64,000 nucleotides of DNA, taken from the NCBI GenBank assembly GCA_028717265.1, contig JAQUOE010000001.1, forward strand, positions 16,963 through 80,962, in the 5' to 3' direction. Below, piece after piece: positions 1 through 36,073 of this stretch. A program made the position numbers and the translations under genes. This stretch comes from Actinomycetota bacterium (lineage in GTDB: Bacteria > Actinomycetota > Humimicrobiia > Humimicrobiales > Humimicrobiaceae). Within the stretch, counting starts at the first letter, position 1. The number at the start of each line of letters is the position of its first letter. Under the pieces are notes generated by a model. The model was not told the origin of the DNA, did not search any database, and was given only the letters and a program-made list of their open reading frames with translations.

Positions 1-584
1 AAATAAACGGCAGAAAAATTTTAACCTATCCTATTGCCGGAACAAGAAAAAGGGGGCAGAATTCCAGAGAGGACAGGATTCTTACCACTGACCTGTTAAA
101 TGACAGAAAAGAAAAAGCCGAACATAATATGCTCGTGGATCTTTCCAGAAATGATCTGGGGAGGGTATGCCGTTATAACAGCGTGAAGGTTAGAAAATAT
201 ATGAGTGTGGAGAAGTATTCACATGTGATACACCTTGTGTCCCGCATAGAAGGAACCCTGAATAAAAATAATTCGATATACGACGCACTAAAAAGCGTTT
301 TTCCTGCCGGCACATTATCAGGTGCCCCAAAAATAAGGGCGATGCAGATAATAAGCGAACTGGAACCTGACAGGCGGGGACCATACGGCGGAGCCGTGGG
401 ATATTTCGGATACGATGGTAATCTTGACAGCTGCATTACAATCAGGACCGCCATTATTAAAAATGGAACGGCATATATTCAGGCAGGTGCCGGAATAGTG
501 TATGATTCCGAACCTGAAAATGAATATAACGAAACTCTAAATAAGGCAGCTGCGCTCTTTAAGGCCATAAAGTTGATGAAGTGA
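1..584 (+). CDS. trpE: anthranilate synthase component I, C-terminal part (5' end lies outside the window)
   Basis: The frame is open from nt 3. It translates to ...ILTYPIAGTRKRG...LLND...MLVDLSRNDLGRV...GAPKIRAMQII...GPYGGAVGYFGYDGNLDSCITIRTA, the chorismate-binding signature. It sits upstream of trpD. Confidence 0.85.
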   Translation, partial: INGRKILTYPIAGTRKRGQNSREDRILTTDLLNDRKEKAEHNMLVDLSRNDLGRVCRYNSVKVRKYMSVEKYSHVIHLVSRIEGTLNKNNSIYDALKSVFPAGTLSGAPKIRAMQIISELEPDRRGPYGGAVGYFGYDGNLDSCITIRTAIIKNGTAYIQAGAGIVYDSEPENEYNETLNKAAALFKAIKLMK

Positions 585-642
585 ACTTAAGGATATGAAA
601 ACAGAGAAGATTTTTAAATAACAAGAAGGGGAGATTTATTAA

Positions 643-1656
643 ATGAAAGATTTTCTGGAAAAAGTTCTAAGCGGAAATGATCTTGATCAGGATGAAGCAT
701 ACAGTGCAATGGAATTCATAATGGAAGGGAAAGCAAATGACTGCCAGATTGCAGCTTTTCTTACCGCATTGAAAATCAAAGGGGAAACGGCTCATGAAAT
801 AAGTGGTTTTTCAAAAGCTATGCTGGAGAAAGCCATAAAAGTCAAAAGCAGGCACAAAAATCTCGTAGATACGTGCGGCACAGGAGGTGACGGTCTGCAT
901 ACTTTCAATATATCCACAACCGCTGCATTCATAGCTGCCGGAGCAGGGGTACCGATTGCAAAACATGGAAACAGAAGCGTATCAAGCAAAAGCGGAAGTG
1001 CCGACGTACTGGAAGAACTGGGTGTAAATATAGATCTCGAATGCGGTGAGGTTTCTGATTGTCTGGATAATGTGGGGATAGGATTTATTTTTGCTCCCAG
1101 AGCCCATACGGCTATGAAATATGTAGCCAGAGCCAGAAAGGACATGGGTATAAGAACAGTTTTTAATATTCTGGGGCCCATTACCAATCCGGCACAGGCA
1201 AGCGGACGGGTACTGGGAGTTTTTGATAAAAATCTTATGGAGGTCATGATAAATACTCTAAAAGACCTGGATGTAGAGAGAGCATTTGTTGTCAACAGCG
1301 AAGAAGGGCTCGATGAATTTTCGGTTTCAGGTAAGAATTCTGTTGCGGAATTGAGAGATGGCAGGGTAACTCGATATATTCTTGATCCGGAAGAGCTGGG
1401 CTTTAAAAAATCAAAAATTTCGGATCTCGCAGGCGGAGATAAGAAAGAAAATGCGAAAATTTTAATGAATATTCTTACCGGGAAGGAAAAGGGAGCAAAG
1501 ATGGATTCTGCGGTGATTAATGCCGCTGCGGCGATAGTCTCAGGTAAAAGGGCCGACTGCCTGAAAGAAGGTCTGGAAATAGCAATATCATCCATTGAAA
1601 GCGGAAAAGCGCATGAGAAACTATTAAAACTTATAGAATTTACAAACAGGAAATAA
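643..1656 (+). CDS. trpD: anthranilate phosphoribosyltransferase
   Basis: Contains DTCGTGGDGLHTFNISTTAAFIAAGAGVPIAKHGNRSVSSKSGSADVLE, the glycosyl transferase family 3 motif. 337 aa. Confidence 0.9.
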   Translation: MKDFLEKVLSGNDLDQDEAYSAMEFIMEGKANDCQIAAFLTALKIKGETAHEISGFSKAMLEKAIKVKSRHKNLVDTCGTGGDGLHTFNISTTAAFIAAGAGVPIAKHGNRSVSSKSGSADVLEELGVNIDLECGEVSDCLDNVGIGFIFAPRAHTAMKYVARARKDMGIRTVFNILGPITNPAQASGRVLGVFDKNLMEVMINTLKDLDVERAFVVNSEEGLDEFSVSGKNSVAELRDGRVTRYILDPEELGFKKSKISDLAGGDKKENAKILMNILTGKEKGAKMDSAVINAAAAIVSGKRADCLKEGLEIAISSIESGKAHEKLLKLIEFTNRK

Positions 1657-1658
1657 AT

Positions 1659-2471
1659 ATGGATTATCTTAAGGAAATCTTGCTGGCCAAAAAAGAAGAG
1701 ATAAAAAAAATAGGGAAAAATCCCGGGTGGATGAAATCAAGAATATCCGGGACAGTTAAAAGCAAAGGGAATTTTTTAAGAAATATCAAGAAGGGGAAAA
1801 TTAATATAATAGCCGAAATAAAAAAAGCTTCCCCTTCAAGGGGAATCATCAACGGAAGGCTTGATATCGAAAAAACGGCCCTTACTTATAATAAATTTAA
1901 AAGTTTTATTTCAGGGATATCGGTTTTGACGGAACCCATATATTTCATGGGTAATACGAAAGATATCGGTAAAGTCAGAAGCAAGACCGATCTTCCGGTT
2001 CTGAGAAAGGATTTTATTTTCAGCGAAGCTCAGGTCTATGAAAGCGCCGCTATAGAGGCGGATTGTATTTTGCTTATCGCTTCGCTTCTGGGAGGAAAGA
2101 AATTAAAAAGACTTCATGGACTTGCCGAAAATCTTGGACTGGATACGCTGATTGAAGTTCATGATATAAAGGAACTGGACAAAGTGCTGGAGACCGGTGC
2201 GGGGTTTATAGGTATAAACAACCGCAATCTCAGGACCATGAGAATCGATGAAAAAACGATTTATGATTTTCTGGAGTATAGCAGCAACAAGGATCTTTCG
2301 GATAAGATCTTTGTCTGTGAGAGCGGCATCAGAGATGCAGGACACATAAAGGATCTTTTTTCGGAAGGCATAAATGTATTTCTCGTTGGGGAATATTTCA
2401 TGGCGAGTAATAGTCTCGAAGAAAGATTGAAAGAGATTGAACTGGAATTGAAAAAGGATAATCTGATATAA
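1659..2471 (+). CDS. trpC: indole-3-glycerol phosphate synthase
   Basis: 270 aa with IIAEIKKASPSRG and LIEVHD motifs, and it sits in the trp operon position. The start is 3 nt after the trpD stop. Confidence 0.85.
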   Translation: MDYLKEILLAKKEEIKKIGKNPGWMKSRISGTVKSKGNFLRNIKKGKINIIAEIKKASPSRGIINGRLDIEKTALTYNKFKSFISGISVLTEPIYFMGNTKDIGKVRSKTDLPVLRKDFIFSEAQVYESAAIEADCILLIASLLGGKKLKRLHGLAENLGLDTLIEVHDIKELDKVLETGAGFIGINNRNLRTMRIDEKTIYDFLEYSSNKDLSDKIFVCESGIRDAGHIKDLFSEGINVFLVGEYFMASNSLEERLKEIELELKKDNLI

Positions 2472-2529
2472 GGATCAGCGGCAATACCGGGCAGTCGAAA
2501 GATAGGCTAATTTATTTGGAGATTATGAT

Positions 2530-3192
2530 ATGGTCTGGATAAAAATATGCGGGATAACAAACTCAAAGGATGCAGCAGAAATATCCCGTCTTGGAGTAAA
2601 TACTATAGGATTTGTGCTGTCCACAAACAGTCCCAGAAGAGTTGGATCCGATACGGCGGAAAAGATAATCATGACGCTGCGGAGCGGGGGGATCAAAGTC
2701 CCGGTGACGGGCGTATTCGTAAATGAGAAGATAGAAAGGATCACCCGGTGCGTTAAATTATTGGGACTGGACTATATTCAGCTTTCGGGAGACGAAGAAG
2801 AGAATTATATAGAGGATTTAAAAAAAGAATCCGGGAAGACAAAAATCATAAAAGCAATAAGGATCAAGGACAATAATAGAAATCAAGAAGATATGATAGA
2901 TGGATTAGATGAAGAAATAGATAAATTAAAAGGTTATGCGGATTTTATTCTTCTTGACAGTTACAGGAAGGGCATTTACGGAGGAACCGGAGTGCCGCTT
3001 GACTGGGGGACGTTAAAGAATTATTGTAGTAAAATCCCTGTCATATTATCGGGAGGACTCGATCCGGAAAACGTTAAAAAGGCAGTGGATACCGTGGGGC
3101 CATTTGGCGTGGATGCATCTTCCGGGCTGGAAATCTATCCCGGAAAGAAGGATATGGAAAAGGCCGCGAGATTCGTAAACATTTTAAGATAG
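2530..3192 (+). CDS. trpF: phosphoribosylanthranilate isomerase
   Basis: 220 aa with an N-terminal IKICGIT motif. It lies between trpC and trpB. Confidence 0.8.
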   Translation: MVWIKICGITNSKDAAEISRLGVNTIGFVLSTNSPRRVGSDTAEKIIMTLRSGGIKVPVTGVFVNEKIERITRCVKLLGLDYIQLSGDEEENYIEDLKKESGKTKIIKAIRIKDNNRNQEDMIDGLDEEIDKLKGYADFILLDSYRKGIYGGTGVPLDWGTLKNYCSKIPVILSGGLDPENVKKAVDTVGPFGVDASSGLEIYPGKKDMEKAARFVNILR

Positions 3193-3290
3193 ATAATAAA
3201 GATTTTAGATTCAGATTTAATTAAAAATTAAAGATAAAAAAGTTTTTAAAATAGGTGTAAAAAGGTAAAAACAATCGAGGGTAGAATAAT

Positions 3291-4460
3291 TTGAAAAAAT
3301 CAGTAAAAAAAGGATATTTCGGGGAATTCGGAGGCAGTTACGTTCCGGAAATACTGGTCAGTGCATTAAAGGAACTGGAAAAGAATTATTTTAAATATAA
3401 AAGGGATAAGAAATTCAAAGAAGAACTGGCATATTATCTAAAGAATTATGCCGGAAGACCCACTCCTCTATATTATGCTGAAAGACTTTCGAAGAAATTC
3501 GGGAAAGCAAAAATTTATTTAAAAAGAGAAGATCTGTGCCATCTTGGTGCCCACAAAATCAACAATACCATAGGCCAGACTCTTCTTGCACGAAAAATGG
3601 GAAAAAAATTCATAATCGCAGAGACCGGAGCAGGACAGCACGGTGTAGCGACTGCTGCGGCAGCTGCGCTGTTTGATATGAAATGCAAGATTTTTATGGG
3701 AAGCAAGGATATCAGGAGACAGTCTTCCAATGTACACAGGATGAAATTGATGGGGGCAGAAGTGGTAGAAGTTTCATCCGGAAGCAGGACGTTAAAGGAC
3801 GCAGTCAATGAAACTCTGCGGTACTGGGTTTCAAGAGTGGATGACACCTATTACGTTCTGGGCTCCGTGGTGGGTCCACATCCATATCCTGCCATGGTAA
3901 GGGATTTCCAGACGATCATAGGCAAAGAGACAAAAAAACAGATCATGGATATTGAAGGGAGGCTGCCTGATTATATTATCGCCTGTGTCGGGGGCGGCAG
4001 CAATTCCATAGGGATATTTTACCCATTTTTAAAATATGCGGATTCTGTCAGGCTCATAGGGGTAGAAGCCGGAGGAAAGGGTATCAGAAGCAGGAAACAC
4101 GGAGCAACGCTGGGTTTTGGTAAAAAGGGTATATTCCACGGCGCCTTCAGCTATGTACTGCAGGATAATTATGGCCAGATAGAAGAAGCTTACTCAATAT
4201 CGGCGGGGCTTGATTACCCCGGAGTCGGACCTGAACATTCATATTTGAAGGAAAAAGGAATAGTCAAATATGAGTATATTGTTGACAGTGAGGCACTGGA
4301 AGCATTCAGAGTATTATCGGAATACGAGGGTATTATCCCAGCATATGAAAGTTCCCATGCCCTTGCTTATGCAGCTAAGCTCGCGCCGGCACTCGATAAA
4401 AACAAGGTCATTATCGTAAATCTATCCGGTCGCGGAGATAAAGACATCGAAAATAAGTAA
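3291..4460 (+). CDS. trpB: tryptophan synthase beta chain
   Basis: TTG start. Contains the [12 protein letters not shown] lysine motif and GGGSNSIG. 389 aa. Confidence 0.9.
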
Positions 4461-27448: not shown

Positions 27449-28660
27449 ATGAAAAAGAATATCTTGATAGCGGTAATCTCGGTTATTGTTATTATTTTTG
27501 TTTTCTCCACCGGACTATGGGTAGGAATCAATTTTGATTCTCTTAAGGGAGATTTATTAAATACTGACCGAAGTGATACTTCAGCAGTTGATGATACATT
27601 CAATTTAGATGCTTTTAAAGAAGTATGGAAGCTTATTTCCGCTAATTCACTGGTAGAAAAAAGCAACAGGGCAATAGTCGAAGCAGGCCTGGAGGGTATG
27701 CTTTCGGTTCTTGATGATAGATATGCAGAATATTTCACAGCTGAAGAATATAGCAAGATAATGGAAGCCTACAGCGGCACTACAAGCGGCATAGGAGTCG
27801 TGGTAACGCTTAATGAAGAAGGGCAGGTTCTGGTAATAAGAATACTTGAGGATGCACCTGCTTATGGAGCGGGCATCATGGAAGGAGATATTATAGTCGA
27901 AGTAGATGATATAGAAATAAAAGATATGGAACTTGAAAATGTAGTGGCTATGATTAAAGGTAAAGAAGGAACCGGAGTAAGTTTGAAGATCTTCAGACCT
28001 TCCGAGGACAAAATATTGGAAACCGATGTCACCAGAGCGAGATTTTATATTCCCAATCTGATTTCCGATATTTTTGAAGGAGACATAGGCTATGTATGGT
28101 ATTACGACTTCCAGGTCAATGGGGCCACACAGCTTGATAAAGAGATTCAAAAACTGATTGATGATGGTGCCAGTGGTCTGATACTGGACCTTCGAAATAA
28201 TCCCGGCGGTACATGGGATGATGCAATCGAGGTTTGTGATTTATTTATAAACGAAGGCATAATTTCAACTATTGAGGGAAGAAACGATAATAAAGTAAGG
28301 ACCGACGAGTTTGTAGCAAGAGAAGGAAAATATACCGAGATTCCACTGGTAGTATTGATAAACAGCTTTTCAGCGAGTGCTTCCGAACTTGTTGCGGGTG
28401 CATTAAAAGATAGTGGCAGAGCCACTCTGGTTGGAGAGACAAGCTATGGCAAGGGTGTCATTCAGGGACTTTATGAGCTTTCGGACGGCTCGGGAATCAA
28501 ATTTACGACTGCAAAATATTTTTTACCTTCAGGAGCATCCGTGGAAGGGGTAGGGGTAAAACCTGATATAATGATCGAGCTAAAAGAGGATGACACCGAA
28601 GATGTTCAATTAGCCAGAGCTATCGAGGAACTTAATATTCTTATAAGTGAGATTGAATGA
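27449..28660 (+). CDS. ctpA: carboxy-terminal processing peptidase (S41)
   Basis: Has an N-terminal TM, a PDZ region and the S41 catalytic region (INSFSASASELVAGAL with Ser, ...GKGV...). 403 aa. Confidence 0.8.
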   Translation: MKKNILIAVISVIVIIFVFSTGLWVGINFDSLKGDLLNTDRSDTSAVDDTFNLDAFKEVWKLISANSLVEKSNRAIVEAGLEGMLSVLDDRYAEYFTAEEYSKIMEAYSGTTSGIGVVVTLNEEGQVLVIRILEDAPAYGAGIMEGDIIVEVDDIEIKDMELENVVAMIKGKEGTGVSLKIFRPSEDKILETDVTRARFYIPNLISDIFEGDIGYVWYYDFQVNGATQLDKEIQKLIDDGASGLILDLRNNPGGTWDDAIEVCDLFINEGIISTIEGRNDNKVRTDEFVAREGKYTEIPLVVLINSFSASASELVAGALKDSGRATLVGETSYGKGVIQGLYELSDGSGIKFTTAKYFLPSGASVEGVGVKPDIMIELKEDDTEDVQLARAIEELNILISEIE

Positions 28661-29139
28661 AAAAACCAAAAAAGAAAAATAGTTACGAAGAGAATAAAAT
28701 GATAATAGCCCTGAATAAAAAAGCATTCAGGGATTTTTTTATTTTAAACACGTATGAGGCGGGAATAGCACTGGAAGGCTGCGAAGTCAAGTCTATACGT
28801 GATCACAGAGTGAACCTGAGGGATAGTTACAGCAGAATAAGGGACAGTCAGCTATTTCTTTACAATATGCATATATCTCCATACAGTAAAAGCAGAATCG
28901 GGGATATAAATCCCACCAGGACCAGAAGACTTCTTATGCACCGGAGGGAGATCGATAAAATAGAAGGTAAGTTGACTGACAGGAGCCTGACCCTTGTTCC
29001 CTTAAGAGTATATATGATCAAAAACAGGGTCAAGATCGAACTGGCACTGGTTAAAGGCAAAGCCGGAAGAGATAAGCGGCAGGATATTCAGGAAAGAGAA
29101 CATAAGATCGAAATGAAGAGGGCTTTGAAAAAATATTGA
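28657..29139 (+). CDS. smpB: SsrA-binding protein
   Basis: Contains IALNKKAFRDFFILNTYEAGIALEGCEVKSIR, the SmpB signature. The start is either ATG at 28657, overlapping the ctpA stop, or the ATG at 28696-28699. Confidence 0.85.
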   Translation: MKKPKKKNSYEENKMIIALNKKAFRDFFILNTYEAGIALEGCEVKSIRDHRVNLRDSYSRIRDSQLFLYNMHISPYSKSRIGDINPTRTRRLLMHRREIDKIEGKLTDRSLTLVPLRVYMIKNRVKIELALVKGKAGRDKRQDIQEREHKIEMKRALKKY

Positions 29140-29196
29140 TTTTGATGTAAAATAACCTCCGCACTTAATCCGGAGTTAATTCCCACGCTAAAATAA

Positions 29197-29549
29197 GGGG
29201 GCGACCTGGATTCGACGGGGACAGGTTGAGCTTAAATTGCAAGCCGAGTATCAGAACTCGTAAATAACTGAAAATAAACATAAAAGCTAATAATAATAAA
29301 TTAGCATTAGCAGCCTAATTTAAGCTGCTACGTCTGTGAAAGGTTTCCTGCGCTTTTCAACAGGCGCCGGTTAGCAGGATACTCCGGTATGATATGTCTG
29401 CGGTAGTACCGGAGGAAATTTAAAGCGGGCTGGCTTTTTTGATCGTGTCCATGCGAGCAAAAAAGTGAGACTTAAAATGTGGAATAAGCTTGTAGGCGTT
29501 TAAGTGTCAATGTCTTCGGACGCGGGTTCGATTCCCGCCGCCTCCACCA
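29197..29549 (+). ncRNA. ssrA: tmRNA (SsrA)
   Basis: It lies directly downstream of smpB. The 5' GGGGGCGACCTGGATTCGACGGGG pairs with the 3' ...GGACGCGGGTTCGATTCCCGCCGCCTCCACCA, giving a tRNA-Ala-like acceptor, T-arm and CCA. The internal tag ORF is GCT AAT AAT AAT AAA TTA GCA TTA GCA GCC TAA, encoding ANNNKLALAA. Confidence 0.85.
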
Positions 29550-29632
29550 TATAATAACTATAAATTTTATGTCCATATAAAAGAGAACTACAAAATCATT
29601 TAATGCCTGCTATATCTTAACAAGAAAATAAT

Positions 29633-29657
29633 GTATTCTTTGTAATACAAAGAATAC
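29633..29657. promoter_or_regulatory. perfect 25-bp palindrome (GTATTCTTTGTA A TACAAAGAATAC), probably an operator
   Basis: Two 12-bp inverted-repeat arms, 12/12 matching, sit 6 nt before the AAAGGAG Shine-Dalgarno of the RHH gene. Confidence 0.45.
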
Positions 29658-29670
29658 AAAGGAGTTTAAT

Positions 29671-29889
29671 ATGTCTAAGATCATTGCCATAAGGTCGCCT
29701 GAAGAAGTATCGGAAAAACTGGACGATTTATCCCTTGAGATTAGAAGAAAAAAAAGTTCTATAATAAAGTCTGCATTGGAACAGTATTTGGATGAATATA
29801 CAGATTATCAGATTGCTCTGGATAGGTTAAAGGATAAACAGGATAAAATAATAATTTCAGAAGATCTAAAGAAAGAGCCTGGAATATAA
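29671..29889 (+). CDS. ribbon-helix-helix antitoxin-like protein (RelB/DinJ/ParD-type) with no cognate toxin gene
   Basis: Shows the RHH pattern IAIRSPEEVSEKLDDLSLEIRRKKSSIIKSALEQYL and a C-terminal tail ending ...DLKKEPGI, like toxin-binding antitoxin tails. The next gene, 16 nt downstream, is an alpha/beta hydrolase. Confidence 0.5.
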   Translation: MSKIIAIRSPEEVSEKLDDLSLEIRRKKSSIIKSALEQYLDEYTDYQIALDRLKDKQDKIIISEDLKKEPGI

Positions 29890-29904
29890 TATCGTATATA
29901 TAAA

Positions 29905-30714
29905 TTGAACTTCATTATGAATAAAAAAAATCTAAGAAAATACGGAAAACCTCCTTTTAGTATCGCACTATTACATGGCGGACCAGGAGCACCAGGTGAA
30001 ATGGCTCCGGTGGCGAGAGAATTATCCTCGTATTGGGGTGTCCTGGAACCACTCCAAACAAAATCATCCATTGAAGAACAGGTTAATGAATTATATTACA
30101 TCCTTGCAAAAAATGGAGATCCGCCTGTCACTTTAATTGGCTGGTCCTGGGGAGCAATGCTCGGATTCATTTTTACTGCAAAATATCCTCGAATGGTGAA
30201 GAAACTCATACTTGTGGGAAGTGCTGTATTCGAGCAGAAATATGCAGAGAAGATTATGAAAACAAGGCTAAACCGCCTTGATAAGGAAGAAAGAATAGAA
30301 ATGCAGGATTTGATAGAAAACTTGAATAATCATTTAATCGAAGATAAAGAAAAGAATATTTTAATATCACGCTTTGGAAAACTTTTATTTAAATCCGATT
30401 CATATAATCCTTTGCCTTATAAGAATGAAATCCTGGAATATCGGTATCATATATACAGGTATGTATGGAAGGAAGTGGAGAACCTCAGATCCAGCGGGAA
30501 ATTATTAAAGATGGGAAAACAAATCAGTTGTCCGGTAGTGGCTATTCACGGTGATTATGACCCGCACCCCTTTCAGGGAGTCCTGAAACCTCTTTTGCGC
30601 ATCATAAAAAATTTCCACTTTATCATTCTGGAAAAATGCGGACACGAACCCTGGATTGAACGCATGGCGAAGGACAGGTTTTATGGCGCTATTAAAAAAG
30701 AATTAAAATTTTAG
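29905..30714 (+). CDS. alpha/beta-fold hydrolase
   Basis: Contains the nucleophile elbow IGWSWGAMLG (GxSxG) and a C-terminal His region (CGHEPW). Confidence 0.6.
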   Translation: MNFIMNKKNLRKYGKPPFSIALLHGGPGAPGEMAPVARELSSYWGVLEPLQTKSSIEEQVNELYYILAKNGDPPVTLIGWSWGAMLGFIFTAKYPRMVKKLILVGSAVFEQKYAEKIMKTRLNRLDKEERIEMQDLIENLNNHLIEDKEKNILISRFGKLLFKSDSYNPLPYKNEILEYRYHIYRYVWKEVENLRSSGKLLKMGKQISCPVVAIHGDYDPHPFQGVLKPLLRIIKNFHFIILEKCGHEPWIERMAKDRFYGAIKKELKF

Positions 30715-30868
30715 AAATTATCAGAAGAGAATTTATTACCCCGGGTGTTATATAACTCGATTTCCTATTAATATTTTAAACCTATCTGCTATAATATTAT
30801 GAATTTTGCTTTAGTTTTAAATATCATAGTCGGAAAATATCATAACCGGGAAAAAAGGTACAATTAAA

Positions 30869-31693
30869 TTGCTTGATCATAAAATATTATATAATTCGGA
30901 ATCTATTTCCGATGAATATGCAAAAAGGGATTACCTTGAGGGCGCCGAATCTGCCATAATTAAAAAATTTGGCAGCAGGTTCAAAAAAATGGATATGCTC
31001 GATATGGGAGTCGGAGGAGGACGCACCACTAAATATTTCGCTCCTCTGGTAAAAAGTTACATAGGAGCGGACTATGCACCTAATATGATAACCAGATGCA
31101 GGGTCAAATATAGAGGTAAATACTCGTTTATGGAGAGCGATGTAAGATCGATGAACATGTTTGGAAGCAATATGTTTGATTTCGTGCTGTTCAGCTATAA
31201 TGGAATAGACAGCTTCAGCCATGAAGATAGGTTTGCAGCTCTAAAAGAAATAAAAAGGGTACTCAGAAGTAATGGATATCTCTATTTTTCTTCGCACAAT
31301 TTAAACTGGGAAAATCTTTCGGATCTCTTTAACTTTAAATCGGGCGGAATGGGCACAGATAAAAAAAATGGTTCCAGGGATTTTATAAGGTTACTTGGCA
31401 GCAGTATTAAATCCGGATTTAAAAAACTTCGCTTGAATATTTTAAATAGAAACCTTCGCAGTAAAGATTTTGTTCAACATTTAAAGGAAAAGCAGAGGGG
31501 CTTGATATATGATAATTCACTTAATGGAAAGGCAAGTGTCTATTATATAACCAGAGCCGAACAGATAAGGCAATTGGAAGATGCCGGTTTTAAAAATATA
31601 ACCACTTATTCCAGAAACGGTACTAATACCGGGAATGAAGAAAAGTTAAATGAAGATGGTTGGATATATTACCTTTGCGAGGCAGATAAATAA
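30869..31693 (+). CDS. class I SAM-dependent methyltransferase
   Basis: Has motif I LDMGVGGGRTT and post-I/II acidic residues. 274 aa. Confidence 0.6.
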   Translation: MLDHKILYNSESISDEYAKRDYLEGAESAIIKKFGSRFKKMDMLDMGVGGGRTTKYFAPLVKSYIGADYAPNMITRCRVKYRGKYSFMESDVRSMNMFGSNMFDFVLFSYNGIDSFSHEDRFAALKEIKRVLRSNGYLYFSSHNLNWENLSDLFNFKSGGMGTDKKNGSRDFIRLLGSSIKSGFKKLRLNILNRNLRSKDFVQHLKEKQRGLIYDNSLNGKASVYYITRAEQIRQLEDAGFKNITTYSRNGTNTGNEEKLNEDGWIYYLCEADK

Positions 31694-31880
31694 GATCTTT
31701 AAAGGCCAGAATGTTAATTAAGCGCATCAGGATACGGCTGATTTCTTATTTTTATTTTAAAATTATATAATTAGTTGGTTGCAGACCTTAAGGTTGATTA
31801 ATTATTTTTTATGGTTACTGCAGTTTTACAGGGTGTTAAAGTTCTAAAAGGGTTTAATAAATAATTCCGAAAGAGTAAAT

Positions 31881-32684
31881 TTGGACAATAGAGCAATAGG
31901 AATTTTTGATTCAGGTGTCGGTGGCCTCACAGTTTTATGGGAAATAATGAAGGCCATTCCCAATGAAAGCACCATATATTTCGGGGACACAAAAAGATTT
32001 CCTTACGGCCCGAGGGATTTGGATGAAGTCAAAAAATTAGTTTTTAAAATAACCAGATTCCTTTACGATAAAGATGTCAAACTTATCGTGATTGCCTGCA
32101 ATACTTCCACTGCTGCTGCCCTTGATGATTTGAAGCGGCAGTATGATATACCGATCATAGGGGTTATAGAGCCCGGAGCAAGGACAGCTGTTTACAATAC
32201 CAGAAATAAAAGGGTCGGTGTGATTGCAACCGAGGGTACTGTCAAAAGCAATGCATATCCGAATGAAATCGAAAGGATAAATCCGGGCATAAAGACATTT
32301 TCCGTTCCGGCTCCTTTGCTTGTGGATTTCGTAGAGAAAGGTATTCTTAAGGGCAGCGGTCTTGATAAAGTAATCAAAGGTTACCTGAAACCATTATACG
32401 ACGCCGGTATCGATGTATTAATACTGGGCTGTACCCATTTCCCGTTGATAGAAAAGAGGATTTTAGCCTGCAGCGGCAATGGGATAAAGGTTATAAGTTC
32501 AGCAGTCGAAACTGCAAAGGATGTCAGGGAAATTCTTGAGGAAAGAGGATTATGTGCGGATAAAGGGAAAACGCCCGAAAGATTTTTTTATGAAACAGGG
32601 ATAAAAAGCAAATTTTTTGAAGTGGGAAATATGTTCCTGGGCGAAGAGATAAAGGAAGTCATAAAAATAAAATTGGATATCTGA
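31881..32684 (+). CDS. murI: glutamate racemase
   Basis: TTG start. Contains IGIFDSGVGGLTV and CNTSTA, the Asp/Glu racemase motifs. Confidence 0.85.
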   Translation: MDNRAIGIFDSGVGGLTVLWEIMKAIPNESTIYFGDTKRFPYGPRDLDEVKKLVFKITRFLYDKDVKLIVIACNTSTAAALDDLKRQYDIPIIGVIEPGARTAVYNTRNKRVGVIATEGTVKSNAYPNEIERINPGIKTFSVPAPLLVDFVEKGILKGSGLDKVIKGYLKPLYDAGIDVLILGCTHFPLIEKRILACSGNGIKVISSAVETAKDVREILEERGLCADKGKTPERFFYETGIKSKFFEVGNMFLGEEIKEVIKIKLDI

Positions 32685-34132: not shown

Positions 34133-34211
34133 CGGGGTGTAGCGCAGTTTGGTTTAGCGCACCTGCTTTGGGAGCAGGGGGTCGGAGGTTCAAATCCTCT
34201 CACCCCGACCA
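34133..34211 (+). tRNA. tRNA-Pro (anticodon TGG), CCA encoded
   Basis: Cloverleaf with acceptor CGGGGTG/CACCCCG, anticodon loop TTTGGGA and T-loop TTCAAAT. Confidence 0.85.
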
Positions 34212-34217
34212 TTTCGG

Positions 34218-34293
34218 GCGGGAATAGCTCAGTTGGCTAGAGCGTCAGCCTTCCAAGCTGAAGGTCGCGGGTTCGAGGCCCGTTTCCCGCTCC
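34218..34293 (+). tRNA. tRNA-Gly (anticodon TCC), CCA encoded
   Basis: Acceptor GCGGGAA/TTCCCGC, anticodon loop CTTCCAA, T-loop TTCGAGG. Confidence 0.85.
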
Positions 34294-34334
34294 ATTTTTT
34301 AGTAATGAATTTTAATTTGTTATAATATTTGCGT

Positions 34335-34411
34335 GCGCCAGTAGCTCAGCTGGATAGAGCAACGGATTTCTAATCCGTGGGTCGGGGGTTCAAATCCCTC
34401 CTGGCGTACCA
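34335..34411 (+). tRNA. tRNA-Arg (anticodon TCT), CCA encoded
   Basis: Acceptor GCGCCAG/CTGGCGT with G1-U72, anticodon stem ACGGA/TCCGT, loop TTTCTAA. Confidence 0.85.
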
Positions 34412-34419
34412 GAAATTTG

Positions 34420-34478
34420 GGTATCGCATTATAAATTCAGGTAGCGTACCATAAAGTTGGTATTGGCTGTATAATTTT
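34420..34478 (+). repeat. three tandem imperfect ~19-20-nt repeats in the tRNA-Arg/tRNA-His spacer
   Basis: GGTATCGCATTATAAATTC, GGTAGCGTACCATAAAGTT and GGTATTGGCTGTATAATTTT share the GGTA...C...ATAAA pattern. Confidence 0.35.
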
Positions 34479-34490
34479 AATTAAACATAT

Positions 34491-34567
34491 GGTGAGAATA
34501 GCTCAGCTGGGAGAGCACAGGATTGTGGATCCTGGGGTCGCGGGTTCGATCCCCGTTTCTCACCCCA
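34491..34567 (+). tRNA. tRNA-His (anticodon GTG) with encoded G-1, CCA encoded
   Basis: An extra 5' G precedes the GTGAGAA/TTCTCAC acceptor, and the discriminator is C. Anticodon loop TTGTGGA. Confidence 0.85.
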
Positions 34568-34580
34568 TTTTTTAAACCTT

Positions 34581-34657
34581 GCGCCTGTAGCTCAGTTGGA
34601 TAGAGCGTCGGACTTCGAATCCGTGCGTCGGGGGTTCGAATCCCTCCAGGCGTACCA
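34581..34657 (+). tRNA. tRNA-Arg (anticodon TCG), CCA encoded
   Basis: Acceptor GCGCCTG/CAGGCGT, anticodon loop CTTCGAA. Confidence 0.8.
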
Positions 34658-34666
34658 TATTTAAAT

Positions 34667-34742
34667 GGGCCGTTAGCTCAGCTGGTAGAGCACCTGACTC
34701 TTAATCAGGGTGTCACAGGTTCGATCCCTGTACGGCTCACCA
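34667..34742 (+). tRNA. tRNA-Lys (anticodon CTT), CCA encoded
   Basis: Acceptor GGGCCGT/ACGGCTC, anticodon stem CCTGA/TCAGG, loop CTCTTAA. Confidence 0.85.
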
Positions 34743-34747
34743 TCTCT

Positions 34748-34834
34748 GCGAGAGTGGCGGAACTGGCAGACGCGCTAGACTTAGGATCTAGTGGGGTAAC
34801 ACCTATAGGGGTTCAAGTCCCCTCTCTCGCACCA
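34748..34834 (+). tRNA. tRNA-Leu (anticodon TAG), long variable arm, CCA encoded
   Basis: Acceptor GCGAGAG/CTCTCGC, anticodon loop CTTAGGA, extra arm TGGGGTAACACCTATA. 87 nt. Confidence 0.85.
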
Positions 34835-34987
34835 GAAAAGAAACAATTTTTGGAATGAAATTTAAAACTAACAGTAGAAAACATGCTGAATGCATATTTT
34901 CGGGACTTGAAAAGACGGACCGAGTGTTAATGAGGGAATCTGCGTTTCTTAAGTCATTTTTTAATGATTTACCTTAATTAGAAACCC

Positions 34988-36073
34988 TCAATATTTATCG
35001 GTTACAACACCAAGAGAGGAAGCTTTTATAAAAGGCAATCCTGTTAAAGCCTTAAGGCCTTCCGAGTCTCCGGTGACTACTGCTCCCATTATCTTTATAT
35101 CATCCTGTGTAAGTTTACCATCATCGCCTACAATGTTGTTGTATATTCTGTCAAATTCATTTCCTTTGTGGTATTCATCTCTGCTATTTACAATAGAGTT
35201 AATAAACAGTTCCACGGCCGTAGATCCGGATATTTCCCTCCCATCATTATAATATAGCTTTATGCCGTAGGCTGTATATTCAGATTTCACCGGCGGGAAT
35301 ACTACAGGAAATTCCATCTCTTCCTGTTTTCTGAGAGGGATCTTCAACATCTCTTTTTCATTTTCACTCAGGTCGTCAACCCAGTACCAGGTTACTGTGA
35401 TGTTCTCAGGCAATATATTTCGAACTTCTTCTGTGGTATATTTCCTGTCAAATGAAAGCGCCATCTCCATATACTTGTCATTGCCAATATCATCAAGTAA
35501 ATCAAGGTCATTCAGACACTCGCCGGCGTTATATTTTACGAAAGGATAGAAAAATACCATCACCCTCTGGCCGAGCTCATTGTATCTCCTGTATCCCAGA
35601 TCCTCTATAGCATAACTGGAATCAAAATCATGATCCAAAATTGAGGGACATGTTTCACAAATCATTCCATGGCGGGGATAGATAGCAAATTCGGATTCTT
35701 TTTCACCTGTATATATAACTTTTCCCTCTATAATTTTGTACATGGTGTAATATATTTTATCTTTATAGCCACGAGTTTCCCATACCTCTTTTCCTATATA
35801 TTTATCAGGAGCGGAAATTTTGTAAATTTCATGTGTATAATTGTTTGTCTCCTTCTCCCATTTATGAATGGAGTTAGCTACAAGATCTGATGCAGCCATA
35901 GCGGCGGCACATAACACACAAAAGACTAAAAAACTTATTCCAATAATTTTCAATATGGTCCACCATCTTGCTTTTTTAACAACTATGCCGAGCTTCTTAC
36001 TTTTGAACTCATCAAAGATTTTGTCCATATCCTTCTTAGTATCTTCTGACTTTTTTTCCATTTTAAAATTCAC
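34988..36073 (-). CDS. putative anti-sigma factor: single TM with a ~290-aa extracytoplasmic domain
   Basis: It sits immediately downstream of an ECF sigma gene on the same strand and overlaps it by 11 nt. It has a short basic cytoplasmic N-terminus, one TM (WWTILKIIGISFLVFCVLCAAAMA) and a large C-terminal domain with no motif I recognise. Confidence 0.5.
   Translation of the reverse strand: MNFKMEKKSEDTKKDMDKIFDEFKSKKLGIVVKKARWWTILKIIGISFLVFCVLCAAAMAASDLVANSIHKWEKETNNYTHEIYKISAPDKYIGKEVWETRGYKDKIYYTMYKIIEGKVIYTGEKESEFAIYPRHGMICETCPSILDHDFDSSYAIEDLGYRRYNELGQRVMVFFYPFVKYNAGECLNDLDLLDDIGNDKYMEMALSFDRKYTTEEVRNILPENITVTWYWVDDLSENEKEMLKIPLRKQEEMEFPVVFPPVKSEYTAYGIKLYYNDGREISGSTAVELFINSIVNSRDEYHKGNEFDRIYNNIVGDDGKLTQDDIKIMGAVVTGDSEGLKALTGLPFIKASSLGVVTDKY

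Follow-up and report, generated by a model that had tools for sequence, protein, structure and literature searches.

We find that the RHH gene lying directly downstream of ssrA in this actinobacterial DNA is probably the decaying antitoxin half of a RelB/RelE-type type II toxin-antitoxin (TA) module, an RHH antitoxin whose RelE/StbE toxin partner has been deleted. Comparison with related loci indicates that the intact module would normally sit directly downstream of ssrA in this uncultured Actinomycetota group (Ca. Hydromicrobium-like). The window, meaning the whole stretch of 64,000 nucleotides that was analyzed, contains the following features between smpB and murI.

28657..29139, + strand: smpB, 160 aa, the left housekeeping flank (ORF; homologues match PF01668 SmpB)
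29197..29549, + strand: ssrA (tmRNA), tag peptide ANNNKLALAA (ARAGORN; Rfam RF00023, 226.3 bits, E = 1.4e-92)
29525..29549, + strand: att core at the ssrA 3′ end, the island integration site in relatives, empty here (direct repeats in relatives)
29529..29900, + strand: horizontally replaced (mosaic) segment that comprises the att core, the native spacer downstream of it, the promoter/operator and RHH gene, and seven codons of the toxin (discordance of identity and dS)
29617..29639, + strand: damaged TA promoter (alignment with toxin-bearing relatives)
29632..29658, no strand: perfect 27-bp palindrome, putative RHH-repressor operator (sequence; relatives)
29659..29664, + strand: Shine-Dalgarno (SD) sequence AAGGAG, 6 nt 5′ of the ATG (read from the sequence; conserved in alignments)
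29671..29889, + strand: RelB-like RHH antitoxin gene, 72 aa, intact ORF, orphan and degenerating (ORF; NF048017, 40.2 bits)
29879..29908, + strand: toxin stub, CTG-EYNIVY then IN-stop, with seven toxin-derived codons at 29879–29899 (tblastn; alignments to L016, L011 and L026)
29917..30714, + strand: resident alpha/beta hydrolase outside the TA module, ATG at 29917, with TTG at 29905 a possible alternative (Abhydrolase_1, 49.7 bits)
30869..31693, + strand: resident class I SAM-dependent methyltransferase (Methyltransf_11, 61.8 bits)
31881..32684, + strand: murI, the right housekeeping flank of the variable ssrA–murI interval (ORF; homologues match PF01177 Asp_Glu_race)

Family identity of the orphan gene and loss of its toxin

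The original prediction described the RHH gene, which starts 121 nt past the end of ssrA, as an orphan RelB/ParD-like antitoxin, and the family search supports that description while narrowing it. The best and only significant NCBIfam match of the window protein is the RelB-like model NF048017, although its score does not reach the cutoff of 50. All 30 family members scanned match this model, with scores of 38.9 to 43.2 bits for orphan copies (38.9 for P0002 and 43.2 for P0003) versus 52.7 to 57.8 bits for toxin-linked relatives (P0004, P0008, P0023, P0037 and P0046). Judged by these scores, the lineage belongs to the NF048017 family and the window copy appears to have drifted under the cutoff. 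The Pfam model RHH_3 also falls short, at 17.0 bits under a cutoff of 21.6. A profile of the family matches CopG-family RHH structures over residues 1–49 (E = 5e-4 to 8e-4), and the best sequence match in the PDB is the CopG-family RHH chain 6xrw_B. An AlphaFold2 monomer built on the family alignment is of low confidence (pLDDT 63.6, pTM 0.30), placing helices at 11–27, 30–54 and 63–66 and no strand. Identity with the metabolic regulators NikR or MetJ was considered and rejected: the protein has 72 aa, no Pfam or NCBIfam match to either at E up to 1, and no NikR_C domain. Literature searches found no experimental study of any member of this antitoxin subfamily. PADLOC returned no defence-system match for the RHH protein, the relatives' toxin, the hydrolase or an 87-aa antisense ORF at 29808–30071, and for the methyltransferase a generic MTase-domain match only; the antisense ORF is considered spurious because it has no family match and runs antisense to the hydrolase.

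Our survey covered about 60 loci. About 45 related loci carry the RHH gene and the palindrome. In the related loci the antitoxin gene overlaps by 11 nt a gene for an 81–83-aa RelE/StbE toxin, usually at the same position between ssrA and murI, and the toxin scores above the cutoffs of both PF05016 (41.9 to 46.3 bits) and TIGR02385 (RelE_StbE; 36.7 to 39.1 bits). Because the toxin matches RelE_StbE and no ParE model, the label RelB/ParD-like resolves towards RelB. Wherever RHH identity is 74% or more and the sequence extends far enough, the overlapping toxin is present, with five exceptions: the window, L013, L014, L015 and L030. The same TA pair is also found at unrelated loci and in other phyla (L005–L008, L025 and L028).

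That no toxin gene follows in the window was noticed at the outset, and the relatives, with an overlapping RelE/StbE gene at the homologous position, establish that it was genuinely lost. When the whole 64-kb window was searched with the relatives' toxins (tblastn), the only hit was the seven-codon stub LEYNIVY, after which the hydrolase comes next; a cognate toxin may lie elsewhere in the genome, beyond the 64 kb examined. The loss is a deletion of ~250 bp, common to the window and four near-identical contigs, with its junction at about 29899–29902, between GTATATA and TAAATTG. Both parental ends of the deletion contain TAAATT, but the junction has two bases (TA) more than a simple microhomology join would leave. 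As all orphans have the same junction and the same 6-bp deletion in the promoter spacer, each of these was a single ancestral event.

Putative operator, damaged promoter and probable decay of the antitoxin

The palindrome, TGTATTCTTTGTA-A-TACAAAGAATACA, comprises 13 + 1 + 13 nt. The original prediction was right that it is real, but gave it 12/12 arms; each arm is one base longer and the arms are complementary at 13/13 positions. It had no match in 100 shuffles of the window, and it folds as single-stranded DNA at -10.2 kcal/mol (z = -8.3). Among the first 30 sequences surveyed, 25 have it upstream of the RHH gene with at most five mismatches; it accompanies the gene away from ssrA as well (L005–L008 and L025), and distant family members have three direct TGTATTAC(A) repeats in its place. 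This distribution identifies the palindrome as the family's conserved operator-like element. It had been placed between the promoter and the SD sequence, but in relatives a conserved TTGACA is followed, 17 nt on, by the -10 hexamer TATTCT, which lies within the left arm, so the palindrome overlaps the promoter. A palindrome or repeats overlapping the promoter is the arrangement of relBE-type operators, here recognized by sequence anatomy alone, and the RHH protein presumably binds it and represses its own expression. The palindrome might instead act at the RNA level, for example as a terminator of ssrA or of an antisense transcript, a reading that we regard as extremely improbable. Its stable fold would suit a terminator, and a consensus scan did list it on the minus strand as a hairpin of terminator type, 12 pairs and then TTATTTTCTT; however, no minus-strand transcription is directed at it, and on the plus strand the palindrome is followed by AAGGAG and the ATG, with no T-run. 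It also overlaps a conserved -10 hexamer and moves with the RHH gene to loci without ssrA, while the direct repeats of distant members make a hairpin impossible and fit repeated RHH-binding subsites. A permissive Rfam search of 29000–32000 found no RNA family besides tmRNA.

Nearly all toxin-bearing loci with at least 74% RHH identity have a promoter of the form TTGACA-17 nt-TATTCT/TATACT. L025 and L027 have no recognizable TTGACA, and L019 retains TTGACA-17-TATTCT despite replaced sequence upstream of its -35 hexamer. The window has a -35 relic, TTAACA (29617–29622), an 11-nt spacer and the -10 hexamer TATTCT (29634–29639), the spacer having been shortened by a 6-bp deletion at about 29631/29632. 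All five orphans have the 6-bp gap, and the -35 lesion differs in each sub-lineage. From general knowledge of sigma-70 promoters, an 11-nt spacer would abolish promoter activity. Inspection by eye and a consensus scan found no convincing -35 hexamer 17 nt upstream of TATTCT, where 29611–29616 reads TATATC; the orphan gene has no extended -10, and the consensus scan of 29550–29670 reported no plus-strand promoter. Read-through from ssrA or an unrecognized promoter could still express the orphan gene.

The RHH reading frame is intact in all five orphan contigs, but the orphans have accumulated eight derived substitutions at conserved residues, including T6A, L9S, F30S, A44T, T62I, R67K and L70P. 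The columns of T6, F30 and L70 are invariant or near-invariant and position 9 is hydrophobic; T6 is a probable DNA-contact threonine, and L9S and F30S would be expected to destabilize the fold. Two changes, L70P and G71R, fall within the presumed toxin-binding tail, and the first of them (CTT to CCT) simultaneously converts the toxin's TTG start to CTG. The orphan clade has eight derived nonsynonymous changes versus at most four synonymous ones, giving an omega of ~0.54 as compared with 0.04 to 0.14 for toxin-linked pairs (Fisher p = 0.02–0.03), a signal of relaxed selection that rests on few events because the substitution counts are small and the orphan contigs closely related. The palindrome is eroded by three changes in L014, L015 and L030, and is still perfect, with a good SD sequence, in the window and L013. 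Most likely, the window's antitoxin copy is poorly expressed and functionally dispensable.

Integration at ssrA, allele import and competing explanations

The ssrA 3′ end had been proposed as a classic integration site, and in relatives it is in active use. Islands bounded by 21–27-nt direct repeats of the att core occur in L014/L030, L016/L017, L018/L021, L019/L020/L023 and L024/L034. The islands are small (0.14–4 kb), with restriction-like genes among their contents. L019/L020/L023 alone have an integrase fragment (PF00589, 40.6 bits), which lies past ssrA and ahead of the att repeat. Every duplicate of the ssrA 3′ end is upstream of the RHH gene, and the final att copy lies 106–147 nt 5′ of the RHH ATG, so the TA module sits just beyond attR. 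The islands stop before the RHH promoter and are inserted between ssrA and the module. The hot spot for integration is thus real in this lineage, and the window's own attachment site is unoccupied (attB). [quoted passage not shown] Searches of 29550–31880 (ORFs, Pfam and NCBIfam) found no integrase, recombinase or remnant of one.

The mosaic segment is 92.3–92.8% identical to L016/L018/L019/L021, whose flanks are only 73–78% identical, and 80.8% identical to L009/L011, whose flanks are 84–88% identical. Synonymous divergence shows the same discordance: dS to L016 is 0.084 for the RHH gene versus 1.8 for smpB, while dS to L009 is 1.41 for the RHH gene versus 0.43 for smpB (smpB overall: 0.43 to L009/L011 and 1.5–1.8 to L016/L019/L021). 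The left crossover maps to 29508–29549, and the right edge of the imported DNA coincides with the toxin-deletion junction. The DNA spanning att core, RHH gene and toxin stub was thus imported from a different lineage, to which it is 92.5% identical as against 76% in the flanks. The GC content of the region is slightly low (31–37% versus 38–42%).

The hydrolase and methyltransferase, both correctly recognized in the original prediction, have another history. In L001, L011, L016, L019 and L026 the hydrolase follows the complete TA pair, with distances in relatives from 22 nt to >1.6 kb; L018/L021/L024 have a 95-nt relic of it, the hydrolase itself being absent in L021. L013 and L026 have the whole methyltransferase, and L009/L011 a copy with an internal deletion. 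Hydrolase dS to L011 is 0.50, in line with the genome flanks, and one phylogeny describes the hydrolase, methyltransferase, smpB, murI and rph, with L009/L011/L026 nearest. On this phylogenetic evidence, the hydrolase and methyltransferase are long-standing chromosomal neighbours and not cargo. We also considered the hydrolase as a replacement 'novel toxin' and rejected it, as it is already 3′ of the complete pair in relatives and tracks the genome phylogeny.

These observations bear directly on the proposal that the locus is the residue of an element integrated at ssrA, of which the toxin loss and the hot spot have held up and the RHH-hydrolase-methyltransferase block as an island residue has not. 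It is highly unlikely that this block is a mobile-element remnant minus its integrase, toxin and attR. Relatives do carry att repeats at the ssrA hot spot and, in L019/L020/L023, an integrase fragment in the interval from ssrA to the RHH gene; the RHH segment, bounded on the left by the att core, departs from the phylogeny of its flanks; the TA pair is also known from unrelated loci and from other phyla; and tandem ssrA islands with ~20-bp repeats are known elsewhere (PMC3146451). However, att repeats are wanting 3′ of every RHH gene surveyed, the relatives' islands terminate before its promoter, the window has no integrase, the GC dip is slight, and a scan of viral contigs found no relatives of the RHH protein. 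The hydrolase, methyltransferase and housekeeping flanks follow one phylogeny, and the order ssrA-RHH-toxin-hydrolase is common to genomes just ~75% identical in DNA, so that relatives largely have the same genes in the same place, the observation named in advance as speaking against an island. For the hydrolase and methyltransferase, the island reading is largely refuted. A retained function for the orphan is a better candidate, though still an unlikely one: the antitoxin may be kept as an anti-addiction or immunity factor against island- or plasmid-borne RelE-type toxins, or as a repressor of the hydrolase and methyltransferase. Its ORF is intact in five contigs, the operator and SD are perfect in the window and L013, the hydrolase start after the deletion is just 15–27 nt from the RHH stop, and in relatives defence-type islands actively integrate at the adjoining att site; orphan antitoxins are also common in other bacteria, where anti-addiction has been proposed (PMC7192599). 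Against retention stand a promoter geometry destroyed by the shared 6-bp deletion and independent -35 lesions, the replacement of a probable DNA contact (T6A), of core residues (L9S/F30S) and of the tail (L70P/G71R), the raised omega, a family score down by 10–19 bits, and an operator decaying in L014/L015/L030; and the hydrolase's variable distance, together with its absence in L021, argues against a conserved regulatory link. We consider it quite improbable, too, that an antitoxin-only allele replaced the resident relBE as an escape from addiction, entering at the att core and ending illegitimately inside the toxin gene, with a cross-reactive antitoxin covering the residual toxin and the orphan then providing immunity against RelE-bearing islands.

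The preferred explanation is therefore one of stepwise erosion of a TA module. In the intact module, an RHH dimer would bind the 25–27-bp palindrome over the -10 hexamer of the TTGACA-17-TATTCT promoter and autorepress the operon, as family knowledge and the conserved anatomy suggest, and the C-terminal half of the antitoxin (residues ~44–72) would bind and neutralize the co-translated RelE-family mRNA interferase. In the clade ancestor, an allele from another lineage replaced the stretch spanning the ssrA att core and the antitoxin gene, and the ~250-bp deletion removed the toxin gene, import and deletion being either one event or two. With the toxin gone, selection on the antitoxin probably relaxed: the promoter lost 6 bp of its spacer and its -35 consensus, conserved residues were replaced, and in a sister lineage the palindrome itself is eroding.

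The locus offers a clean natural example of the erosion of a chromosomal TA module, from toxin deletion through promoter damage and antitoxin substitutions to operator decay in a sister lineage. It lies next to a tmRNA hot spot where integration is active, in uncultured actinobacteria about which little is known. The locus carries a practical caution too: a gene adjacent to ssrA need not be island cargo. The erosion of a gene pair is ordinary and well documented, and the locus holds no mechanistic novelty for TA or island biology; it is of use for annotation, with an orphan RelB-like antitoxin and an attB that is empty, and documents on a small scale how TA alleles are exchanged.

Comparison with known systems

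The module in relatives resembles RelBE modules (NF048017 and TIGR02385). The antitoxin gene precedes the toxin gene and overlaps it. The antitoxin has ~70–80 aa, of which the N-terminal part is a predicted RHH domain and the C-terminal half would bind the toxin, and the ~83-aa toxin ends in a ...HRK..Y motif. The promoter is overlapped by a putative palindromic operator, and both curated cutoffs are cleared. The window differs in its deleted toxin, in an antitoxin below the family cutoff and in an 11-nt promoter spacer. ParDE (ParD/ParE) modules share the predicted RHH fold of the antitoxin, the best PDB chain being of the CopG family, and the relatives' toxin matches PF05016 'ParE_toxin', a model that spans the whole RelE/ParE superfamily; however, with the more specific NCBIfam models the toxin matches RelE_StbE and, weakly, YoeB, but no ParE model. 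As in the CopG/Arc/MetJ class of repressors, including NikR, the operator is palindromic or repeated, and the N-terminal 40 residues align to the CopG strand-helix-helix. Unlike that class, the protein has an extra C-terminal part of 30 residues that is conserved together with the toxin partner, and it lacks NikR_C or any other ligand-binding domain, which sets it apart from a metabolic regulator.

Dehalococcoides has tandem ssrA-specific islands with ~20-bp repeats, some of them without integration genes, and a syntenic, vertically inherited region starts after the last repeat (PMC3146451), as it does here. Those islands use the serine recombinase DsiB, whereas the sole recombinase seen here is the tyrosine-integrase fragment (PF00589) of relatives; the islands here are also small, with restriction-like genes, and the window itself has none. 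In Klebsiella pneumoniae, orphan antitoxins have been read as degraded TA loci or possible anti-addiction genes (PMC7192599). That work is a survey, whereas a single locus is followed here, at which deletion junction, promoter lesion and allele import can each be traced.

The locus and its putative operator

As the original prediction described, the sequence 3′ of ssrA contains a palindrome and a 72-codon ribbon-helix-helix (RHH) ORF with no toxin gene 3′ of it, and the ssrA 3′ end occurs only once.

Features of the window locus
28657-29139, smpB
29197-29549, tmRNA gene ssrA (ARAGORN; Rfam RF00023, 226 bits)
29632-29658, perfect inverted repeat, 83 nt beyond the tmRNA
29659-29664, Shine-Dalgarno sequence AAGGAG
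29671-29889, RHH ORF, 72 codons
29917 (ATG; or TTG at 29905) to 30714, alpha/beta hydrolase gene (Abhydrolase_1, 49.7 bits)
30869-31693, class I SAM methyltransferase gene (Methyltransf_11, 61.8 bits)
31881-32684, murI, followed by rph

The sole significant curated match of the RHH protein is NCBIfam NF048017, a RelB-family RHH antitoxin (40.2 bits; cutoff 50), which agrees with the antitoxin identity first proposed; its Pfam RHH_3 match is sub-threshold. CopG-family RHH structures align to the family profile over residues 1-49 (E = 5e-4). Among 5.8 billion proteins searched, relatives formed 58 clusters, nearly all of 72 aa (53 full-length clusters at 74-100% identity, and a few partial sequences besides), from MAGs of Ca. 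Hydromicrobium and other Actinomycetota. Weak sub-threshold matches to NF053762, the archaeal aCcr1 cell-cycle regulator, occur in 28 of 30 family members over residues 3-40 (family alignment A2; best E = 2.7e-6, 60-bit cutoff not reached) and probably reflect generic RHH likeness.

The palindrome, TGTATTCTTTGTA-A-TACAAAGAATACA, is perfect as predicted, with arms of 13 nt instead of 12. Shuffling the window never produced such a match, and the palindrome as single-stranded DNA forms a much more stable fold than shuffled sequences do (z = -8.3). We surveyed about 60 loci through encoding contigs, a GTDB genome scan and a metagenome scan (L numbers denote loci carrying the RHH gene). The palindrome is kept beside the gene in almost all relatives, as expected of the operator originally proposed, and the two also occur together at unrelated chromosomal sites between HhH-GPD glycosylase and PolX (L005-L008) and in a Spirochaetota MAG (L025). 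At most toxin-bearing loci, an invariant TTGACA is separated by 17 nt from a TATTCT hexamer (TATACT in L039 and L040). TATTCT occupies positions 3-8 of the left arm, so that the palindrome lies across the -10 region. At L019, an island-end deletion has swapped all sequence 5′ of TTGACA, and the promoter geometry is kept. An operator over the -10 region is the classical layout for autorepression by an RHH antitoxin, and we infer that the antitoxin binds the palindrome as a putative autorepression operator. Were the palindrome to work as an RNA hairpin, its replacement in distant members (46-54% identity; L028, L048-L051) by three direct TGTATTAC(A) repeats would be hard to accommodate; these fit protein-binding subsites of about 9 bp instead. 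Distant members, L054 among them, whose hosts are Neomarinimicrobiota and others, carry two or three direct TGTATTAC(A) or TGTAATACA repeats at 9-10-bp spacing, a pattern that suggests a basic RHH-binding subsite of about 9 bp.

Toxin loss and probable decay in the orphan clade

In relatives' contigs, an 81-83-aa gene with a TTG start overlaps the RHH gene by 11 nt, and its product passes both Pfam PF05016 (41.9-46.3 bits, cutoff 23) and the more specific TIGR02385 RelE_StbE (36.7-39.1 bits, cutoff 27.9). This toxin is present at all loci whose RHH identity is 74% or higher and whose downstream sequence suffices, except five orphans: the window, L013, L014, L015 and L030. All five share a single deletion junction, ...ATATCGTATATA/TAAATTGAAC..., with about 250 bp missing relative to the toxin-bearing L011. 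The predicted toxin loss is thereby confirmed: where relatives have an overlapping RelE_StbE gene, the window retains a stub of seven codons (LEYNIVY, 29879-29899) reading into a stop, and no toxin homologue was found elsewhere in the 64-kb window. Deletion by an illegitimate join is plausible because TAAATT is present at both parental ends, but the junction has two extra bases.

The promoter spacer is 6 bp shorter in all orphans (11 nt, from 17 nt). The -35 is TTAACA in the window and L013 and carries a 1-nt deletion in the other three, where three mutations have also altered the palindrome to TCTATTCTTTGTAAAATAAAGAATACA. Polarised against ten outgroups, the orphan substitutions comprise eight derived amino-acid changes, with at most four synonymous differences: T6A, F30S, A44T, T62I and R67K in all orphans, L9S in the window and L013, L70P in the window alone, and G71R in L013 and L014. 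T6, F30 and L70 are near-invariant across the family; judged by the CopG alignment and the CopG-DNA structure, T6 matches a beta-ribbon threonine that contacts bases, and L9 matches a leucine of the core. The TTG at which the lost toxin gene started overlaps the RHH gene and is abolished by L70P and, separately, by G71R. Omega (dN/dS) is 0.54 between the window and L016, versus 0.04-0.14 among toxin-linked pairs (Fisher p = 0.02-0.03), and NF048017 scores fall from 52.7-57.8 bits in toxin-linked relatives to 38.9-43.2 bits in orphans. These changes are consistent with relaxed selection after toxin loss. The orphan antitoxin may possibly have retained a function: its ORF and the window palindrome are intact, and the substitution numbers behind the relaxed-selection signal are small.

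The ssrA attachment site and its flanks

In this lineage, the 3′ end of ssrA clearly serves as an attachment site. Several relatives have inserts bounded by 21-27-nt duplicates of GGGTTCGATTCCCGCCGCCTCCACCA, the att core (29525-29549 in the window). L014 and L030, otherwise 98-100% identical to the window, carry a 4-kb insert whose genes include GmrSD_N and HSDR_N-like ones; L019, L020 and L023 carry a 1.5-kb insert with a tyrosine-integrase fragment (about 4386-5914 in L019). Tandem arrays occur at L016/L017 and L024/L034/L036, and a 158-nt mini-insert at L018 (326-485), L021 (3244-3402) and L031. In every island case, the last att repeat lies 106-147 nt 5′ of the RHH start codon and is followed by the same spacer found directly 3′ of the window ssrA, except at L019/L020/L022/L023, where an island-end deletion reaches the -35. 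This places the toxin-antitoxin (TA) module beyond attR, as chromosomal flank. No att repeat was found 3′ of the RHH gene in any locus searched, and no second ssrA 3′-end copy anywhere in the 64-kb window, matching the earlier failure to see one; the window att site is empty.

The L014 island spans 259-4280 between two perfect 25-nt ssrA 3′-end copies, and L030 has the same structure. It encodes a 73-aa ORF, a 291-aa HSDR_N-like protein, a 600-aa GmrSD_N (type IV restriction-like) protein and a 186-aa ORF, with no recognisable integrase. The L019/L020/L023 insert holds a 169-aa ORF without a family match and the 139-aa C-terminal integrase fragment (PF00589, 40.6 bits); past its second att copy, the left end of another island, about 24 nt long, adjoins the TA-promoter -35 directly. 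The mini-insert, between ssrA and a slightly mutated second att copy (CCACTA), has the same right end (GCGAACAAAGTGAGACGAAAGAC) as the larger islands in L016, L019 and L024 and could be what a deletion left behind or else a miniature element.

The order ssrA-RHH-toxin-hydrolase is common to genomes with only about 75% DNA identity, and a 95-nt hydrolase relic is left in L018, L021 and L024. The L026 order, RHH-toxin-(67 aa)-hydrolase-amine oxidase-methyltransferase-murI, is probably ancestral for the window's clade. The hydrolase and methyltransferase track smpB, murI and rph, with a synonymous divergence (dS) of 0.43-0.95 to L009/L011 (hydrolase to L011, 0.50) and 1.5 to >2 to L016/L019/L021. 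On these distances they are residents, not island cargo. The gene block had been proposed as the residue of an integrated element; with all att repeats 5′ of the RHH gene and both genes tracking the flanks, that proposal fails.

The whole ssrA-murI interval is a hot spot of gene gain and loss. A 490-aa amine-oxidase gene lies between hydrolase and methyltransferase in L026 (8753-10225), as in L009 and L019, and is absent from the window; the methyltransferase, intact in the window, L013 and L026, has an internal deletion of about 500 bp in L009/L011 (L011 6999-7291 against window 30732-31693). In L001, L002 and L003 (L001 6614-8070), the relBE-type pair and the hydrolase are separated by a GNAT acetyltransferase, an ORF of 139 aa and another TA-like pair, in which an 89-aa ORF overlaps a 71-aa DUF6290 protein. 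An AT-rich 35-nt element 5′ of murI (31742-31775, TTTCTTATTTTTATTTTAAAATTATATAATTAGT) is 94-97% identical between genomes that share only about 76% identity in their coding flanks, and a diverged copy (81%) lies 5′ of the methyltransferase gene at 30759-30785, where a TG-extended promoter-like site is predicted. The element is probably a strongly conserved promoter, although its conservation is unusually high. Farther on, seven tRNA genes (Pro, Gly, Arg, His, Arg, Lys, Leu) cluster at 34133-34834, and GC skew turns from positive to negative right after them (about 34800-35000), which may be only a coding-strand change.

A mosaic segment and its possible histories

Positions 29529-29900 share 92.3-92.8% identity with L016/L018/L019/L021, against only 73-78% for the flanks of those loci, and only 80.8% with L009/L011, against 84-88% for theirs. 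For the RHH gene, dS is 0.084 to L016 and 1.41 to L009; smpB shows the opposite order (1.80 and 0.43). Because the mutual RHH dS of L009 and L026 (0.51) is in line with housekeeping genes, theirs is the native allele of the window's clade, which makes the window's lineage the recipient. Within ssrA, L011-type sites end at 29507, which places the left crossover within 29508-29549, att core included; L011-like sequence restarts at 29902, which makes the toxin deletion junction the right edge. Two histories fit these data equally well. An antitoxin-plus-stub fragment may have been imported in one event, its left end exchanged at att, either site-specifically or by homology, and its right end joined illegitimately. 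Alternatively, the whole cassette may have been exchanged, and a later deletion would have taken both the toxin and the right crossover point. It is a long shot that antitoxin-only allele replacement was an escape from addiction, with the orphan persisting as immunity against RelE-bearing elements.

By sequence comparison, we read the locus as what is left of a RelB/RelE-type module that has lost its toxin and is eroding, with a conserved putative operator, adjoining an unoccupied tmRNA attachment site. Islands targeting ssrA are common. Tandem ssrA islands are described in Dehalococcoides (PMC3146451), and the att-bounded inserts of the window's relatives resemble them. Orphan antitoxins are common as well (PMC7192599); both are already known kinds, to which this locus adds a further case.
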